Shown one piece after another: positions 3,710 through 31,615 of a stretch of DNA of 57,407 bases. Location of the stretch: the NCBI RefSeq assembly GCF_003334315.1, contig NZ_QOWR01000028.1, one strand, 5' to 3'. The stretch comes from Escherichia coli. Lineage in GTDB: Bacteria; Pseudomonadota; Gammaproteobacteria; Enterobacterales; Enterobacteriaceae. Below the pieces are notes generated by a model. That model did not search any database. It worked only from the letters and a program-made list of their open reading frames with translations, and was not told where the DNA came from. Every line of letters starts with the position of its first letter. The stretch's first letter is position 1. Position numbers and translations under genes: made by a program.

Positions 3710-4735
3710 TTAACGCACGGGCGGTGCGTACTGAATACCGCCGTTATTCCAGAGATTATTTTGCCCACGTTTAATTTTCAGCGGGCTTTCTGAACCTACG
3801 TTACGCTCAAAAATTTCCGAGTAGTTACCCACCTGTTTGATGATGTTATAGGCCCATTTATTATCCAACTTCAGATCCTTGCCGTAATCGCCTTCTTTAC
3901 CCAGCAGATGTGCCATATCAGGCGTTGCTGGATTAGCCGCTTTTTCATCGACGTTCTGGGAATTGATGCCCATCTCTTCAGCATTTAGCATGGCGAAAAG
4001 CGTCCAGCGTACAATCGAGAACCATTCATCATCGCCACGACGAACTACCGGCCCAAGCGGTTCTTTAGAGATAACCTCCGGTAAGACAATCCATTCAGCC
4101 GGGTTGCTTAATTTGATGCGCAGGGCATACAGTTGGGATTGATCCGAAGCCAGCGTATCGCAGCGACCAGATTCCAGTGCCTTCGCTGATTCGTCAGAGC
4201 GATCGAAAGTCACTGGTGTGTACTTCATATTGTTTGCCTTGAAATAGTCGGCGACGTTGAGTTCGGTATCAGTACCCGCCTGAATACAGACGGTAGCGCC
4301 ATCCAGTTCTTTCGCGCTTTTTAGCCCCGCTTTATCGTGCGTCAGGAAGCCAATGCCGTCGTAATAAGTGACGCCAGTAAATGCCATTCCCATCCCGGCA
4401 TCGCGAGATGAAGTCCAGGTCGTATTACGGGAGAGCAAATCCACCTCCCCTGACTGTAAAGCGGTGAAGCGTTCTTTTGCAGTGAGCGGGGTATATTTCA
4501 CTTTCGTGTCGTCACCAAATACAGCAGCGGCAACACCACGACAAATATCAACATCAATACCTGAAAATTTACCGTCAGCATCGGCATAAGAGAACCCAGG
4601 TAATCCATCACTGATCCCGCATTGCACAAAACCTTTTTTCTGTACGGCATCAAGCGTCGCGCCAGCATGCGCCTGATTTGCAACGGCAAGCAGCACGCTG
4701 GCGGCAGCCAGTGTGGCTATCATCATCTTTTTCAT
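3710..4735 (-). CDS. yhdW: periplasmic amino-acid-binding protein of ABC transporter
   Basis: 341 aa with N-terminal signal peptide MKKMMIATLAAASVLLAVANQAHA; solute-binding fold; first gene of yhdWXYZ. Confidence 0.94.
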   Translation of the reverse strand: MKKMMIATLAAASVLLAVANQAHAGATLDAVQKKGFVQCGISDGLPGFSYADADGKFSGIDVDICRGVAAAVFGDDTKVKYTPLTAKERFTALQSGEVDLLSRNTTWTSSRDAGMGMAFTGVTYYDGIGFLTHDKAGLKSAKELDGATVCIQAGTDTELNVADYFKANNMKYTPVTFDRSDESAKALESGRCDTLASDQSQLYALRIKLSNPAEWIVLPEVISKEPLGPVVRRGDDEWFSIVRWTLFAMLNAEEMGINSQNVDEKAANPATPDMAHLLGKEGDYGKDLKLDNKWAYNIIKQVGNYSEIFERNVGSESPLKIKRGQNNLWNNGGIQYAPPVR

Positions 4736-5165
4736 AATGCTTCCTGTGAGGCGAAAATTATCGTTATAGGACGTTTGGGAAACGTCTTTTACCTGTCTGT
4801 GGCCATCCTCTTATAAGCAAAAGTAGTGCCAGCTTTTGCGCACGATTTCGCGTCGCAATAAGCTGAGTGTAGACAGGAAATAATAAAAACAGCGCCCCGC
4901 AATGGTGCGAAAATGAAACATGCGCCACATTTTGGCGCAAAATATTTACGCGTGTTTTACTAAGCAGAATAATGATTGTTAGCGTGAGTATATTTCTGGT
5001 GGGAAGTGCGAAAGTTAAATTGATGCGTTATTTCGAAAGCAGCGAAATAACGCGATATAACATGCTAAGTCAGCAGAGAATTAGCCAGCAGAATATAGCA
5101 ATATTTTATCTTATGTAAAGATACTGTATCGTTAAACAGAGCGCGAAACTCCGCGCCCTGTTCAG

Positions 5166-5387
5166 TTATTTCGACAGAGCGATGATCCCCATCGTCAGGC
5201 CAGCAACAGCTGCTGCTCCGCCAGCAATAGCCCCAGCCGTTTCCCAGTTATCCTGAGTTGTGCCTTTCATACAGGTATTGGTGTGAACCAGACGCCCCTG
5301 ATCGTCATAAACCGGAACGCAGGGCGAATCGTGAGCACAGCCCGCCAGCAATGCGGTGAGCAATGCCACAGGAATTAATCTTTTCAT
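5166..5387 (-). CDS. yhdV: small outer-membrane lipoprotein
   Basis: 73 aa; lipobox LLAGC after signal peptide; Gly/Ala-rich C-terminal hydrophobic segment GAIAGGAAAVAGLTMGIIAL. Confidence 0.85.
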   Translation of the reverse strand: MKRLIPVALLTALLAGCAHDSPCVPVYDDQGRLVHTNTCMKGTTQDNWETAGAIAGGAAAVAGLTMGIIALSK

Positions 5388-5605
5388 GGTGTTACCTCAG
5401 TAATAAACGCTAACGCTTAATAAGTTAACTCTCTTATTAACGAGCTGAATGCCATTTTATCACCGGAGGTTATAAATCTTGCGGAATGAATAATGACAAA
5501 TTATGTGAATTGTAAAAATAGTGAAGGGAGCGGGAACTATAGAAAGCTTTTAAAGAGTGAGCAAAAGAATATCTTATTAATTTTTATGGGTTTCACTGAA
5601 AATAA

Positions 5606-5632
5606 TAAAGGCACCCGAAAGCGCCTTTATGT
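5606..5632 (-). terminator. candidate acrEF terminator hairpin
   Basis: AAAGGCACCCGAAAGCGCCTTT just 3' of acrF stop; on minus strand followed by TTTATTATTTT. Confidence 0.45.
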
Positions 5633-5639
5633 TTCAGAT

Positions 5640-8600
5640 TTATCCTTTAAAGCAACGGCGGATCACCACAAAGAACACCGGTACGAAGAAGATTGCCAGC
5701 AACGTTGCAGAGACCATTCCGCCCATTACCCCGATACCCACTGCGTTCTGCGCGCCACTGCCGGCACCGTTACTGATAGCTAGCGGTAATACGCCGAGAA
5801 TAAAGGCGAGAGAGGTCATCAGGATAGGACGCAGACGCATACGTACTGCCATTAGTGTCGCTTCAACAACACCTTTACCCTCTTTCTCCATGAGATCTTT
5901 AGCGAACTCAACAATCAAAATAGCGTTTTTGGCCGACAAGCCAATTGTCGTTAGCAAGCCCACCATAAAGTAGACGTCATTTTTTTGATTAAAGAGTGTT
6001 GCCGCCAGTAGCACGCCGACAATCCCTAACGGCACTACCAACATAACCGAGACAGGAATTGACCAGCTTTCATAGAGTGCAGCAAGGCACAGGAAAACAA
6101 CCACAAAGGAAATTGCTACCAGAGCGGGAGCCTGGTTTCCCGATAAGCGTTCCTGATACGACATACCCGTCCAGTCATAACCAATGCCCGCAGGTAATTT
6201 TGACGCAAGGTTTTCCATCAACGCCATGGCATCGCCGGAACTGGTTCCTGGCGCGGCTTCCCCCTGAATCTCCATTGACGGCAGACCGTTGTAGCGTTCC
6301 AGTCGCGGAGAGCCATACACCCAATGTGAAGTGGTAAAGGCCGAGAATGGCACCATTTCGCCGTTGGCGCTGCGGACATAAAGTTTATCGACATCTTCTG
6401 GCAGCATACGGAATTTGGCATCCGCCTGAACATACACCTTTTTCACACGACCACGGTCGATGAAGTCGTTAACGTAAGTCCCACCCAGCGCCGTTGAAAT
6501 GGTCTGATTGATGTCAGAAAGTGAAACACCTAATGCCTGCGCCTTTTCCTGGTCAACTTCCAGTTTAAACTGCGCGGTGTCTTCCAGGCCATTAGGACGC
6601 ACGCTGACTAAGCTGGCAGGATGTTGCGCAGCCATACCAAGCAACTGGTTACGGGCCTGGGTTAGGGCATCGTGACCCAGCCCAGCCTGATCAATTAACT
6701 CAAAGTCGAAACCCGTTGCCGTGCCCAGTTCAACAATGGCTGGCATATTGAATGGAATGACAAAACCGTCGCGGATCTTGCCCAATTCCATTTTGGCACG
6801 ATGGATTACCGCTTCCGCACTGTTTTCATCACCATTACGCTCTTCCCACGGTTTCAGACTGACGAAGGCCATACCGGCGTTTTGTGCCTGGCCGCTGAAG
6901 CTAAAGCCGTTAACCGTAAAGACACTTTCAACGTTCGCTTTCTCGTTCTTCAGATAGTAATCCGTCACTTGATCCAACACTTTTTGCGTCCGCTCTTGCG
7001 TCGCGCCAGCGGGTAACTGAATCATGGTCAGAAAGACACCCTGATCCTCTTCAGGTAAGAAGGAAGACGGAAGACGTAAAAACAACACCACCATTCCTGC
7101 AACAATCAGCGCATAGATCAGTAAATATCGTCCTGTGGAACCGAGGATTTTGCCGACGCTGTTGGTGTAGTGGTTAACGCTATGATCGAAGGTGGTATTA
7201 AACCAGCCGAAGAAACCGCCCTTATTTTCGTGATGCTCAGCAGAGACGGGTTTAAGCAGCGTTGCACATAACGCAGGGGTAAGAATCAATGCCACCAGAA
7301 CAGAAAGCGCCATTGCCGAAACGATGGTGATAGAGAACTGGCGATAAATTGCCCCAGTAGAACCGCCGAAGAATGCCATCGGAATAAATACCGCTGACAG
7401 CACCATCGCGATACCCACCAGTGCGCCCTGAATTTGCGACATTGATTTTTCCGTCGCTTCTTTTGGCGGGAGCTTATCCTCCATCATCACGCGCTCGACG
7501 TTCTCCACCACCACTATCGCATCATCGACGAGCAGCCCGATGGCAAGCACCATCCCGAACATCGTTAGTGTGTTGATGGAGTAACCAAAAGCGGCGAGGA
7601 TGGCAAACGTCCCTAACAACACCACGGGTACCGCAATGGTGGGGATCAGCGTTGCTCGCATATTCTGCAAGAACAGATACATCACCAGGAACACCAGCAT
7701 AATGGCTTCGAACAGCGTTTTTACCACTTCGTGAATAGAAAGCTGGACGAATGGCGTGGTGTCATAAGGGTAGAGAACCTTCATTCCCTGCGGGAAGAAT
7801 GGCTGTAATTCCGCCAGTTTTGCCTTAATGGCTTTCGCGGTATCGAGAGCATTCGCGCCGGTTGCCAGCTTAATCCCCAGGCCCGCCGCCGGTTTTCCGT
7901 TGATACGAGCGATAACGTTATAGTTTTCACCGCCAAGTTCAACCCGTGCGACATCTTTCAGGCGTACCACCGAGCCGTCACTGTTTACGCGCAGGGTCAC
8001 TTTGCCGAATTCTTCCGGATTTTTTAACCGCGTTTGAGCAATAATCGAGGCATTCAACTGTTGCCCTGGTAACGCTGGCGTTCCGCCCAACTGTCCGGCA
8101 GCGATCTGATCGTTCTGTACCTTCAACTGGTTAATCACATCAACCGGTGTCAGTTTATATTTGTTTAGCAGATCGGCGTCCAGCCAGATACGCATCGCAT
8201 ACTGTGCGCCGAAAAGCTGTACGTCACCGACGCCATTCAGACGGCTAAGCGTATCTTTAACGTTAGAGGCCACATAGTCCGAGATATCGTCCTGTGTGGT
8301 GTCTGGGTTATCAGAGACAAAGCCCGCCACCATCAAATAGCTGCTACTGGACTTTTCAACACTGATCCCCTGCTGCTGAACCTCCTGCGGCAGCAACGGC
8401 GTGGCGAGCTGGAGTTTGTTCTGCACCTGCACTTGCGCGATATCAGGATCGGTCCCGGACTGGAAGGTAAGGGTAATTGTCACGCTACCGGCGGAATCGC
8501 TGGTGGAGGACATATACATCAGGTTATCGATACCATTCATATTCTGTTCGATAACCTGCGTCACCGTATCCTGCACGGTCTGCGCATCAGCACCTGGATA

Positions 8601-8744
8601 GTTTGCCGAAACAGAAACCGCAGGCGGTGCAATGGTTGGATACTGAGCGACGGGCAATTGTAGGATCGCCAGTGCGCCCGCCATCATCAGAATAATGGCC
8701 AGCACCCATGCAAATATCGGTCGTCGAATAAAAAAGTTTGCCAT
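5640..8744 (-). CDS. acrF: RND multidrug efflux pump inner-membrane transporter
   Basis: 1034 aa; [24 protein letters not shown]-terminus, 12-TM RND architecture, AcrB paralog. Confidence 0.97.
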
Positions 8745-31382: not shown

Positions 31383-31615
31383 GAACATAACCGTAGGTCG
31401 GATAGGGCGTTCACGCCGCATCCGGCAGCCGTTGCCTGATGCGACGCTGTGCGTCTTATCAGGCCTACAAACGGAACATAACCGTAGGTCGGATAAGGCG
31501 TTTACGCCGCATCCGACAGCCGTTGCCTGATGCGACGCTGTGCGTCTTATCAGGCCTACAAACCGGAACATAACCGTAGGCTGGATAGGGCGTTCACGCC
31601 GCATCCGGCAGCCGT
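31383..31615. repeat. BIME: tandem array of REP (palindromic unit) elements, about 2.5 copies of a ~91-bp composite
   Basis: AACATAACCGTAGGTCGGATAGGGCGTTCACGCCGCATCCGGCAGCCGTTGCCTGATGCGACGCTGTGCGTCTTATCAGGCCTACAAACGG repeated at 31383, 31474 and 31565 (last truncated). Confidence 0.92.

Follow-up and report, generated by a model that had tools for sequence, protein, structure and literature searches.

YhdV of Escherichia coli is best explained as a stress-induced envelope lipoprotein that would be anchored twice, through an N-terminal lipid and a C-terminal apolar helix, and would bind a membrane partner. We advance this reading tentatively, at somewhat less than an even chance; the family itself is a narrow and uncharacterised orphan of Enterobacterales. 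The gene lies on the minus strand of the window, by which we mean the whole stretch of 57,407 nt analysed here, at 5166..5387 (73 codons and a TAA stop, 5166-5168). Its ATG-started product of 73 aa, MKRLIPVALLTALLAGCAHDSPCVPVYDDQGRLVHTNTCMKGTTQDNWETAGAIAGGAAAVAGLTMGIIALSK, taken from the list of open reading frames, is 100% identical to YhdV (b3267) of strain K-12. A preliminary description had named it YhdV and proposed a small lipoprotein, and both the K-12 match and a canonical lipobox agree with this prediction. The gene is already annotated as ‘lipoprotein YhdV’, which that description, silent as to the strand, mostly repeats.

yhdV is a genuine, translated gene and not a chance open reading frame, since a Shine-Dalgarno GAGG (5395..5398, minus strand) can be read 8 nt upstream of the ATG, amino acid changes are rare relative to silent ones (median dN 0.064 vs dS 1.36, dN/dS ~0.05, over 16 genera), 5385 of 5426 complete E. 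coli genomes carry the locus and the gene responds in both Ribo-seq and RNA-seq. The Shine-Dalgarno region, TGAGGTAA, is conserved across genera. At pH 4.4, yhdV rises by a log2 fold change of 6.2 in Ribo-seq and 6.4 in RNA-seq, that is about 70-fold (PMC10746267), and is within the 20 strongest-induced genes in this condition. It is also upregulated in EHEC growing on radish sprouts, and published sources list Nac- and Lrp-linked regulation. The suggested link with stress is thus borne out at the level of RNA and of ribosome footprints. An absence of detectable expression, which had been named as an argument against the initial proposal, is not what is found, given the induction by acid and on radish sprouts.

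Judged from its signals, yhdV is an independent transcription unit. It stands alone, as first described, between acrEF and yhdWXYZ, with acrF (5640-8744) on its upstream side at a distance of 252 nt and yhdW (3710-4735) on its downstream side at 430 nt, and with its own Shine-Dalgarno sequence, promoter and terminator. A terminator scan finds a terminator-like acrF hairpin between acrF and yhdV (5605..5630, minus strand). It is followed by a predicted extended -10 element, GGTGATAAAAT (5454..5464, minus strand; hexamer TAAAAT, 5454-5459), whose T-G-n-T-A...T columns are invariant in a footprint of 15 genera and which implies a transcription start at ~5447; in Serratia, TACAAT aligns with the E. 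coli -10. The same phylogenetic footprint approach delineates a conserved upstream block, CCTTCACTATTTTTACAATTCACATAATTTGTCATTATTCA (5487..5527, minus strand), in which TTTACA is invariant and which is probably an activator site. In Citrobacter, Salmonella and Enterobacter, the 3′ part of this block reads TGAGATTATTCC, located 39 nt upstream of the -10 and matching positions 1-12 of the 14-nt RcsB box. Serratia, Citrobacter and Salmonella possess this box, and the E. coli copy is degenerate; its distance to the -10 differs between the Serratia and the Citrobacter/Salmonella lineages. Directly 3′ of the stop codon, a hairpin of 14 bp (5133..5164, minus strand; RNA fold -21.7 kcal/mol, z = -5.8), whose stability is equalled by none of 200 shuffles and whose U-tract is weak, is likely the yhdV terminator.

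This organisation bears on the idea that YhdV could be an accessory subunit of the AcrEF pump, in the manner of AcrZ, or of the YhdWXYZ transporter. Both gene sets adjoin yhdV in E. coli, and one GWAS paper counts it as a member of acrF's operon. Against this stand the acrF terminator, the separate and conserved yhdV promoter and the gene order elsewhere, acrEF being inverted, absent or situated at another place in many species carrying yhdV. It is inverted in five GTDB species loci with yhdV and lacking in others that retain the pair yhdV-yhdW; Salmonella arizonae, S. diarizonae and Klebsiella have acrEF without yhdW beside yhdV, and in Serratia and Hafnia yhdV occupies other loci. The linkage of yhdV with acrEF is not conserved, membership of an acrEF operon is contradicted by synteny and terminator alike, and a role as subunit of either machinery seems barely credible.

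A survey of 100,044 species genomes detected the family in 163, all of them Enterobacterales. NCBIfam searches with YhdV gave nothing near the cut-offs, the matches being limited to the signal peptide, and a search of PDB sequences with the family profile recovered lipoprotein signal peptides alone (e.g. BamD), at E >= 0.1. No relative pointing to any function of YhdV emerged from Pfam, NCBIfam or PDB. In the literature searched, yhdV is mentioned by 18 papers, each time in a list, and lipidation, localisation assays, oligomerisation or a phenotype are not reported there. Several matches with ‘68% coverage’ (P0092, P0096, P0110 and others), considered as a distinct architecture, turned out to have frameshifted or chimeric C-termini and were discarded.

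The first anchor can be read at the N-terminus, MKR-LIPVALLTAL-LAGC. A signal peptide is predicted over residues 1-16 (5340..5387, minus strand), with an MKR n-region and a hydrophobic h-region; it matches Pfam LPAM_1 weakly (E = 0.0016), fits the lipobox consensus [LVI][ASTVI][GAS]C and is the least conserved region of YhdV (majority-residue frequency 0.81). The lipobox L14-A15-G16-C17 (5337..5348, minus strand) ends with C17 (codon 5337-5339), at which the mature protein is predicted to begin and to carry its lipid. All of 45 diverse relatives keep L14 and C17, and at least 90% keep G16; the lipobox LLAGC recognised earlier is confirmed. For sorting we relied on the Lol ‘+2 rule’, taking the absence of Asp after the lipidated Cys as the mark of an outer-membrane lipoprotein. 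YhdV has Ala at this position, and the 107 family members have A in 90 cases, S in 13, T in two, V in two and D in none. As no member carries the Asp+2 signal for Lol avoidance, the lipid anchor would most likely be delivered to the outer membrane.

Between the two anchors lies a periplasmic module, residues 18-50 (5238..5336, minus strand), AHDSP-C23-VPVYDDQGRLVHTNT-C39-MKGTTQDNWET, defined from dN/dS, AF2 and its pattern of Cys. It includes a VYDDQGRLV hairpin and a juxtamembrane QDNWET motif and is the most tightly constrained part of the protein (median dN 0.013 vs dS 0.94, dN/dS ~0.014). The preliminary description had overlooked this module. AF2 places strands at about residues 23-27 and 33-39 with modest confidence (pLDDT 62-70 in the hairpin, mean of 63-68 for both models). 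C23 (codon 5319-5321) and C39 (codon 5271-5273), both read on the minus strand, close the predicted β-hairpin; they are present together in 75 members and absent together in 25, the six sequences with a single Cys being error-laden. From this pattern and the models we infer that a C23-C39 disulfide staples the VYDDQGRLV hairpin. We attribute the profile matches between the hairpin and DotG/IcmE-like, WD40 and YD-repeat proteins to a generic β-hairpin motif rather than to homology. MgrB, the inhibitor of PhoQ, also has a periplasmic Cys pair, together with an N-terminal transmembrane helix and no lipobox. YhdV is similarly tiny, stress-regulated and, by prediction, membrane-anchored, with a short periplasmic segment carrying two conserved Cys, but it has a lipobox and the two proteins share no homology.

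The second anchor would be the C-terminus. AF2, hydrophobicity and conservation delimit a Gly/Ala-rich hydrophobic helix ending with Lys, residues 51-73 (5169..5237, minus strand), and AF2 predicts a single helix from residue 44/45 to 72 (pLDDT 77-81). The Gly/Ala-rich hydrophobic C-terminus reported earlier is indeed there, the string then quoted corresponding to residues 52-73. G67 and A70 are invariant among relatives. Small residues share one face of the helix (helical moment exceeded in 269 of 10,000 permutations), and this one-sided face is compatible with helix packing.

The tail had further been read as a glycine zipper, typical of small stress lipoproteins, which would make YhdV a true member of the OsmB/SlyB type forming homo-oligomeric rings via the zipper. 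The small size of the lipoprotein, its Gly/Ala-rich tail with A59xxxG63xxxG67 and two GxxxG motifs, its induction by stress and a family precedent (bioRxiv 10.64898/2025.12.22.696046) speak for this part of the proposal. The motif, however, is at chance level: the strict form (G/A/S)xxxGxxxG matches once, at A59-G63-G67, a result equally obtained in 30% of composition-preserving shuffles, 15% of them reach two GxxxG motifs, and the strict form is missing in about one third of homologues, where G63 is changed to A. YhdV matches none of the Pfam glycine-zipper families PF05433, PF13488, PF13441 and PF13436 at E <= 10, nor do any of 15 family members (YhdV and 14 relatives) at E <= 0.1, whereas OsmB (72 aa), the positive control, is recognised by PF05433 (1.5e-7), PF13441 (0.0028) and PF13488 (0.004). 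With the YhdV family profile, SlyB and YfgH score only 3-4 bits, and the score of OsmB is negative. According to AF2 and sequence, the YhdV tail is one helix, in contrast to the two-helix hairpin of the 2TM glycine-zipper families, and its hydrophobicity is much higher (KD19 1.97 and Hessa-scale sum +0.9, against 1.0-1.5 and +4.4 to +7.7 for the zippers of OsmB, SlyB and YfgH). What stands is the one-sided distribution of small residues; membership of the glycine-zipper family is contradicted, and formation of zipper-mediated rings appears quite unlikely. The likeness to OsmB, SlyB, YfgH and YiaD, outer-membrane lipoproteins of E. coli, is of another order: all are small, stress-induced enterobacterial lipoproteins without Asp+2, with an apolar stretch, rich in Gly and Ala, that presumably lies in the membrane and packs through small residues. 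Homology with this group (Pfam ‘glycine zipper 2TM’, PF05433 and relatives) is not detectable, and YhdV has one helix, which is more hydrophobic. Compared with OsmB, SlyB and YfgH, it has in addition the predicted disulfide-stapled β-hairpin as its best-conserved part, while conservation does not extend to the strict zipper motif.

Relatives outside chromosomes suggest where a partner could be sought. YhdV-like proteins, distant relatives, are encoded by Erwinia phage RF1, an E217-like myovirus contig and jumbo-phage-like contigs of 237-341 kb; they have neither the Cys pair nor Asp+2. In three phage contexts the gene lies directly downstream of a trimeric-autotransporter-like gene, whose product has a signal peptide, collagen-like repeats, a coiled coil and a YadA-type outer-membrane β-barrel anchor. 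Lipoproteins encoded with trimeric autotransporters are known, SadB with SadA and TpgA with Ata, and by analogy the phage pairs may follow the same logic of a helper lipoprotein, a sequence relation to SadB or TpgA not being expected. Unlike such pairs, yhdV on chromosomes has no gene for a YadA anchor in its vicinity. A full-length YhdV paralogue is also carried by IncHI2 conjugative plasmids, and 31 of the 46 plasmid matches are on conjugative plasmids.

These occurrences might alternatively indicate a domesticated phage or plasmid factor of exclusion or surface modulation, which would mask or remodel an outer-membrane receptor, the chromosomal copy still guarding against certain phages or conjugation. 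Llp, Cor and TraT are examples of lipoproteins acting in superinfection or entry exclusion. The phage and plasmid distribution is in line with this, and so is the position of the phage copies, which are accessory, beside adhesin-like genes and outside the lysis cassette. On the other hand, the PHROGs matches are confined to the signal peptide, those to Cor (phrog_1119; E 1e-3 to 4e-2) covering residues 1-27 and those to spanin families doing likewise, and membership of a Cor/Llp-type exclusion family by sequence was rejected on this ground. YhdV proper was found in none of the 2.9 million viral contigs of IMG/VR, where the phage-type alignment retrieved one viral contig, of 341 kb; the relatives P0140 and P0154 had no match among GenBank phages. 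Moreover, a single fixed chromosomal locus, a native GC content of 0.54 and strong purifying selection in three families are the pattern of a housekeeping-type stress gene, and induction by acid gives no hint of exclusion. We regard an exclusion role as improbable.

The most serious competitor of our preferred reading concerns the membrane in which the helix resides. YhdV could be a bitopic inner-membrane lipoprotein, retained there despite Ala+2, with the helix as stop-transfer anchor, Lys73 in the cytoplasm and the hairpin, on the periplasmic side, modulating a partner such as a sensor kinase or a transporter, in which it would be comparable to MgrB. Its KD19 is above the usual transmembrane threshold and its Hessa sum is near the insertion boundary, far from the values of outer-membrane zippers. 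Of the 107 members, 76 end with K and 23 with R (eight with another residue), usually with nothing beyond, and in the relative P0154 a basic tail, HKANKNKHH..., continues past the helix; a helix oriented N-out/C-in in the inner membrane would fit both features. The conserved periplasmic Cys pair goes in the same direction, and a table in the Ribo-seq paper gives the inner membrane as the location of YhdV (PMC10746267). Conversely, exposure to LolCDE should lead an inner-membrane resident to gain Asp+2, which no member has. The helix is also much weaker than that of T1 gp11, an authenticated lipoprotein stop-transfer anchor (Hessa sum -3.7 vs +0.9), and in yeast mCherry fused to the YhdV tail reached no membrane (bioRxiv 10.1101/111716). 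In addition, the phage relatives pair with proteins anchored in the outer membrane, and no linked partner gene, for the inner membrane or otherwise, was found at chromosomal yhdV loci. The distance to gp11 on the Hessa scale, the failure in yeast and the phage neighbours with YadA-type anchors make us lean slightly to the outer membrane rather than to an inner-membrane stop-transfer anchor, and the bitopic arrangement as a whole is a contender that we consider unlikely.

gp11 also exemplifies a third topology, in which YhdV would be a miniature u-spanin-like tether, its lipid in the outer membrane and its helix in the inner one, locally bridging or fusing the two. u-spanins are defined by an outer-membrane lipoprotein signal, a β-strand periplasmic part and a C-terminal hydrophobic helix (PMC6139136), an architecture that YhdV matches in outline, its lipobox lacking Asp+2 and its C-terminal helix being hydrophobic but marginal; in gp11, as in YhdV, basic residue(s) follow the helix. 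But YhdV has 33 residues between its anchors, compared with 84 in gp11; fully extended, we estimate that these would span ~11 nm, too short for the periplasm. Its transmembrane segment is far weaker, sequence similarity is restricted to the signal peptide (8.7 bits), and YhdV has two periplasmic Cys where gp11 has none and none of 58 u-spanins has any (PMC6139136). gp11 belongs to a holin-endolysin cassette, whereas yhdV is chromosomal, stress-regulated and without lysis cassette, and in phage RF1 a distance of 16 kb separates the homologue from the holin and endolysin genes. A tether is accordingly very improbable.

A comparison can also be drawn with Lpp, Braun's lipoprotein. Lpp, a 78-aa precursor matured to 58 aa, trimerises into a soluble coiled coil and is crosslinked to peptidoglycan through its C-terminal Lys. 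YhdV is of nearly equal size (73 and 57 aa, respectively), and it too would have a lipid at its N-terminus and has Lys at its C-terminus, but its body is a predicted hairpin followed by an apolar helix, with no coiled coil, and the final Lys is not invariant. Crosslinking of the Lpp type was rejected, as K and R interchange at the C-terminus: with R in 23 of the 107 members, a crosslink through an ε-amino group cannot be the conserved function.

We return to the preferred reading, that of a doubly anchored lipoprotein with a membrane partner. Along the established route by which lipoproteins are made, the action of Lgt, LspA and Lnt would yield a mature YhdV of 57 residues triacylated on Cys17. 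The single apolar Gly/Ala-rich helix, residues ~45-72, ending with Lys or Arg, is predicted to be buried in the membrane as second anchor; lipid and helix together would fasten the 33-residue periplasmic module to the membrane surface at each end. During acid or envelope stress YhdV would accumulate, and the small-residue face of its helix could pack on itself or on a protein of the membrane, for which an outer-membrane β-barrel is the most plausible candidate, specificity being conferred by the nearly invariant hairpin. The working mode would be akin to that of the stress lipoproteins SlyB, OsmB and YfgH, without homology; SlyB and YfgH have been proposed to surround outer-membrane proteins and lipids during stress (bioRxiv 10.64898/2025.12.22.696046).

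A broader version of this scheme is more speculative, and we consider it rather unlikely. The YhdV family would represent an unrecognised class of mini-lipoproteins docking on outer-membrane β-barrels by means of one helix and a hairpin. Phage versions would partner trimeric-autotransporter-like proteins, and in Enterobacterales the stapled version on the chromosome would have been co-opted for stabilising or modulating an outer-membrane protein of the host when acid or envelope stress arises, the IncHI2 copy serving the same purpose.

The finding that yhdV encodes a small lipoprotein is in itself ordinary, yet YhdV is notable as one of the dwindling number of y-genes, devoid of a Pfam or NCBIfam family and confined to Enterobacterales. 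Selection on its 33-residue ectodomain (dN/dS ~0.014) matches that on core proteins in strength. Double anchoring by a lipid and a marginal transmembrane helix would be unusual and raises a question of sorting for the Sec and Lol pathways, while the pairing of phage relatives with trimeric-autotransporter-like genes offers a concrete hypothesis as to the partner of YhdV.

The gene yhdV lies at 5166..5387 of the window on the minus strand, as an ATG-initiated frame of 73 codons in the window ORF list, with a GAGG Shine-Dalgarno sequence 8 nt 5′ of the ATG. Its product, MKRLIPVALLTALLAGCAHDSPCVPVYDDQGRLVHTNTCMKGTTQDNWETAGAIAGGAAAVAGLTMGIIALSK, is 100% identical to E. coli K-12 b3267 ('lipoprotein YhdV'), and the gene order acrE-acrF-yhdV-yhdWXYZ-rrnD is common to K-12 and the window. 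The lipobox reported in the preliminary description is present as L14-A15-G16-C17, and the C-terminal string quoted there corresponds to residues 52-73. The gene was recognised correctly, and it was annotated already; its GC content (0.54) is native, and 5385 of the 5426 complete E. coli genomes have the locus. E. coli HH107 (L100, about 1130-1900), like at least nine further strains (H1-H10), carries an IS1 between acrF and yhdV. The IS1 transposase gene starts ~190 bp 5′ of the yhdV start codon, a position upstream of the conserved block described below, and apart from the insertion the flanking sequence matches the window at 100% identity.

The C-terminal segment had been described as glycine-zipper-like, but membership of YhdV in the Gly-zipper lipoprotein families is not supported. 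On YhdV, Pfam gave only a weak LPAM_1 signal-peptide match, and its Gly-zipper families were absent from 15/15 YhdV-family members; the same-sized lipoprotein OsmB, used as positive control, matched PF05433 ('Glycine zipper 2TM domain', 1.5e-7), PF13441 and PF13488. The YhdV family profile scored 3-4 bits on the zipper lipoproteins SlyB and YfgH and negative on OsmB. The strict (G,A,S)xxxGxxxG motif occurs once (A59-G63-G67), which is chance level: 30% of shuffles that preserve composition do as well. About a third of homologues, with A in place of G63, lack it. Moreover, in contrast with zippers, the segment is a single helix and not a hairpin, and is far more hydrophobic: its best 19-residue Kyte-Doolittle mean is 1.97 vs 1.01 (OsmB), 1.51 (SlyB) and 1.38 (YfgH), and its simple Hessa 2005-scale sum +0.9 vs +7.7, +4.4 and +6.0 kcal/mol, respectively. 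On the other hand, its small residues gather on one helix face (G/A/S helical moment surpassed by 269/10,000 permutations), which would keep helix-helix packing through these residues a reasonable mechanism.

Across 23 close and 45 diverse relatives, invariant or near-invariant positions comprise lipobox L14, G16 and C17, then P22, C23, Y27, D28, G31, C39, D46, W48, T50, G52, A59/A60, A62, G67, I68, A70 and the terminal K/R. AF2 models from 23 and 45 sequences (mean pLDDT 63 and 68) both display a signal-peptide helix, a short beta-hairpin around residues 23-39 (pLDDT 62-70) and a single long C-terminal helix (44/45-72, pLDDT 77-81). Both C23 and C39 are present in 75 members and both absent from 25, only one being found in 6 error-laden singletons; such co-presence and co-absence is the expected signature of a disulfide, which would close the hairpin. 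VYDxxGRLV, the core of the hairpin, is of a generic beta-hairpin type, and the YhdV hairpin profile (VYDxQGRLV) also matches 4-9 tandem repeats in DotG/IcmE-like, WD40 and YD/Rhs-repeat proteins (P0143 and P0156, 821-837 aa; P0146, 1172 aa; P0160). We read these matches as structural convergence rather than homology.

Which membrane receives the C-terminal helix was weighed from several sides. It could be a true inner-membrane transmembrane helix, as suggested by its hydrophobicity, by the conserved terminal K/R at which 88/107 members end, by the relative P0154, which extends past the helix with HKANKNKHH..., and by a table of PMC10746267, which gives the location as inner membrane. We lean slightly towards delivery to the outer membrane. 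Position +2 is never Asp in 107 members (A 90, S 13, T 2, V 2), as an anchor the helix falls far short of the authenticated lipoprotein stop-transfer segment of the T1 u-spanin gp11 (Kyte-Doolittle 2.97, Hessa sum -3.7), the YhdV tail fused to mCherry was published to target no membrane in yeast, and phage relatives are paired with outer-membrane-anchored proteins. Together these would favour the outer membrane. Comparison with u-spanins goes no further than outline. These proteins combine an outer-membrane lipoprotein signal, a C-terminal transmembrane domain and a beta-rich periplasmic domain, lack periplasmic Cys and are encoded in the lysis cassette (PMC6139136), whereas YhdV has two cysteines, a weak helix and no lysis context. 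Only 33 residues separate its anchors vs 84 in gp11, and similarity to gp11 is limited to the signal peptide.

YhdV relatives on mobile elements are new in this analysis. Large IncHI2-type conjugative plasmids of Salmonella and E. coli have a full-length paralogue (…CAHDSPCVPVYDDQGRLVHTNTCMKGTMQDNWETIGVIAGTVAAVAAVTLGVIAVSK), annotated as 'membrane protein' WP_024152227.1, close to thermonuclease, DUF2726, umuDC and dsbA-family genes. It lies at L095 6001-6222 on the IncHI2 plasmid p5417_MCA, and 45 further plasmid records have it. Phage-type relatives (37-51% identity) are devoid of the Cys pair and retain the lipobox, the YYD..G hairpin, QDxWET and …ALGIVALTK. They were found in Erwinia phage RF1 (83 aa), a related 45.6-kb phage contig, an E217-like myovirus contig (P0154) and contigs of 237-341 kb that include a tRNA array, one of them an IMG/VR viral genome. 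On the 237-kb metagenomic contig, probably a jumbo phage, the 69-aa gene (L091 5423-5903) lies just 3′ of the array (tRNAs Arg-Leu-Leu-Met), and the ORFs around it match neither Pfam nor PHROG; the 341-kb IMG/VR genome has a similar gene.

In three phage contexts (RF1, its related contig and the E217-like contig) the yhdV-like gene directly follows a YadA-anchor gene (L096 4657-6252, for RF1; L102 3958-5252; L093 4426-6375), one small membrane-protein gene intervening in RF1. The upstream product, trimeric-autotransporter-like by its sequence, has a signal peptide, collagen GXY repeats, a coiled coil and a full YadA-type anchor ending …GVSYGW (PF03895 at 3.2e-15), the anchors being 50-55% identical across contexts. 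The RF1 holin-endolysin cassette is 16 kb away, which places the lipoprotein outside it. YadA anchors were found neither in the window nor around any chromosomal yhdV.

The YhdV family is tiny: 1.84 billion representative proteins, searched with a HMMER profile, gave 53 matches, and at 90% identity its members form 212-278 clusters, all of them free of Pfam domains. YhdV is present in 163/100,044 species genomes, in Enterobacteriaceae, Serratia, Hafnia and Obesumbacterium. The acrEF neighbourhood is not a conserved one: acrEF is flipped relative to yhdV in five species, several species have yhdV-yhdW without acrEF, yhdW is missing from Salmonella arizonae, S. diarizonae and Klebsiella, which have acrEF-yhdV, and in Serratia, Hafnia and Obesumbacterium yhdV occupies unrelated loci. 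Consequently, no chromosomal partner gene is implied.

Several observations show that yhdV is a genuine gene with expression of its own. Downstream of acrF there is a terminator-like hairpin (5630-5605), and a 14-bp hairpin (-21.7 kcal/mol, z = -5.8) follows the yhdV stop codon. In an upstream alignment of 15 genera, an extended -10, GGTG(A/G)TAAAAT (5464-5454), is invariant, and a conserved block, TCTCCAT..TTTTTACA..CACATAA.TTGAGATTATTC (about 5527-5487), sits about 30-70 nt further upstream. A consensus scan found no canonical sigma-70 -35/-10 pair, which would fit an activator-dependent promoter. At the codon level (E. coli vs 16 other genera), median dN is 0.064 vs dS 1.36, and 0.013 vs 0.94 for the periplasmic module (residues 18-50) alone. 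The preliminary description held that lack of detectable expression would count against it; published data show that it is translated and regulated, yhdV being among the top 20 induced genes at pH 4.4 (log2FC 6.18 by Ribo-seq, 6.43 by RNA-seq; PMC10746267) and upregulated in EHEC on radish sprouts (PMC4048457). Published listings also link it to Nac and Lrp.

Control by RcsB is a possible lead only. The homodimeric RcsB box, TN(G/A)GAN4TC(T/C)NA (PMC7913699), is fully matched in 15/15 Serratia-type upstream regions (L055-L059, L061, L065, L067, L071-L074, L076, L078, L002), e.g. TCGGAGTTTTCCCA, 63 nt upstream of the -10 TACAAT and about -126 to -135 from the ATG. In about 20 regions from Citrobacter, Salmonella and Enterobacter, TGAGATTATTCC stands exactly 39 nt 5′ of the -10 hexamer, at -111 to -123 from the ATG; the E. 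coli copy, TGTCATTATTCA, is degenerate. The two boxes occupy different aligned positions, hence our caution.

A sigma-54-type site, TGGCACTACTTTTGCT (4816-4831, minus strand; one mismatch to TGGCAC-N5-TTGCA), lies 81 nt 5′ of the yhdW ATG and is assigned to yhdWXYZ rather than yhdV; it agrees with an RpoN/NtrC site published for the yhdV-yhdX interval. A good sigma-70-like promoter, TTTACA-16-TATATT with TG (5092-5119, minus strand, 10/12 matches), just 3′ of the yhdV terminator hairpin, is directed at yhdW. yhdW itself (3710-4735, minus strand) is an intact 341-aa ORF here but is annotated as a pseudogene in K-12 MG1655, so the window does not come from MG1655. Elsewhere, two plus-strand 5S rRNA genes (1-106 and 236-351) on either side of a tRNA gene (121-193) are the end of the rrnD operon, which in K-12 reads rrfD-thrV-rrfF, and two tandem matches to Rfam naRNA4 (CssrE, REP-derived nucleoid-associated RNA) occur at 31396-31465 and 31487-31556 on the plus strand (71 and 77 bits).

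Our best working model is that YhdV would be a stress lipoprotein with a helix that packs, by its small residues, in a membrane. The hairpin, stapled by the putative disulfide, would act as its specificity element, and an outer-membrane beta-barrel is a plausible partner. For this already known gene, the Gly-zipper family assignment is not supported, and the looser packing idea survives as the working model.
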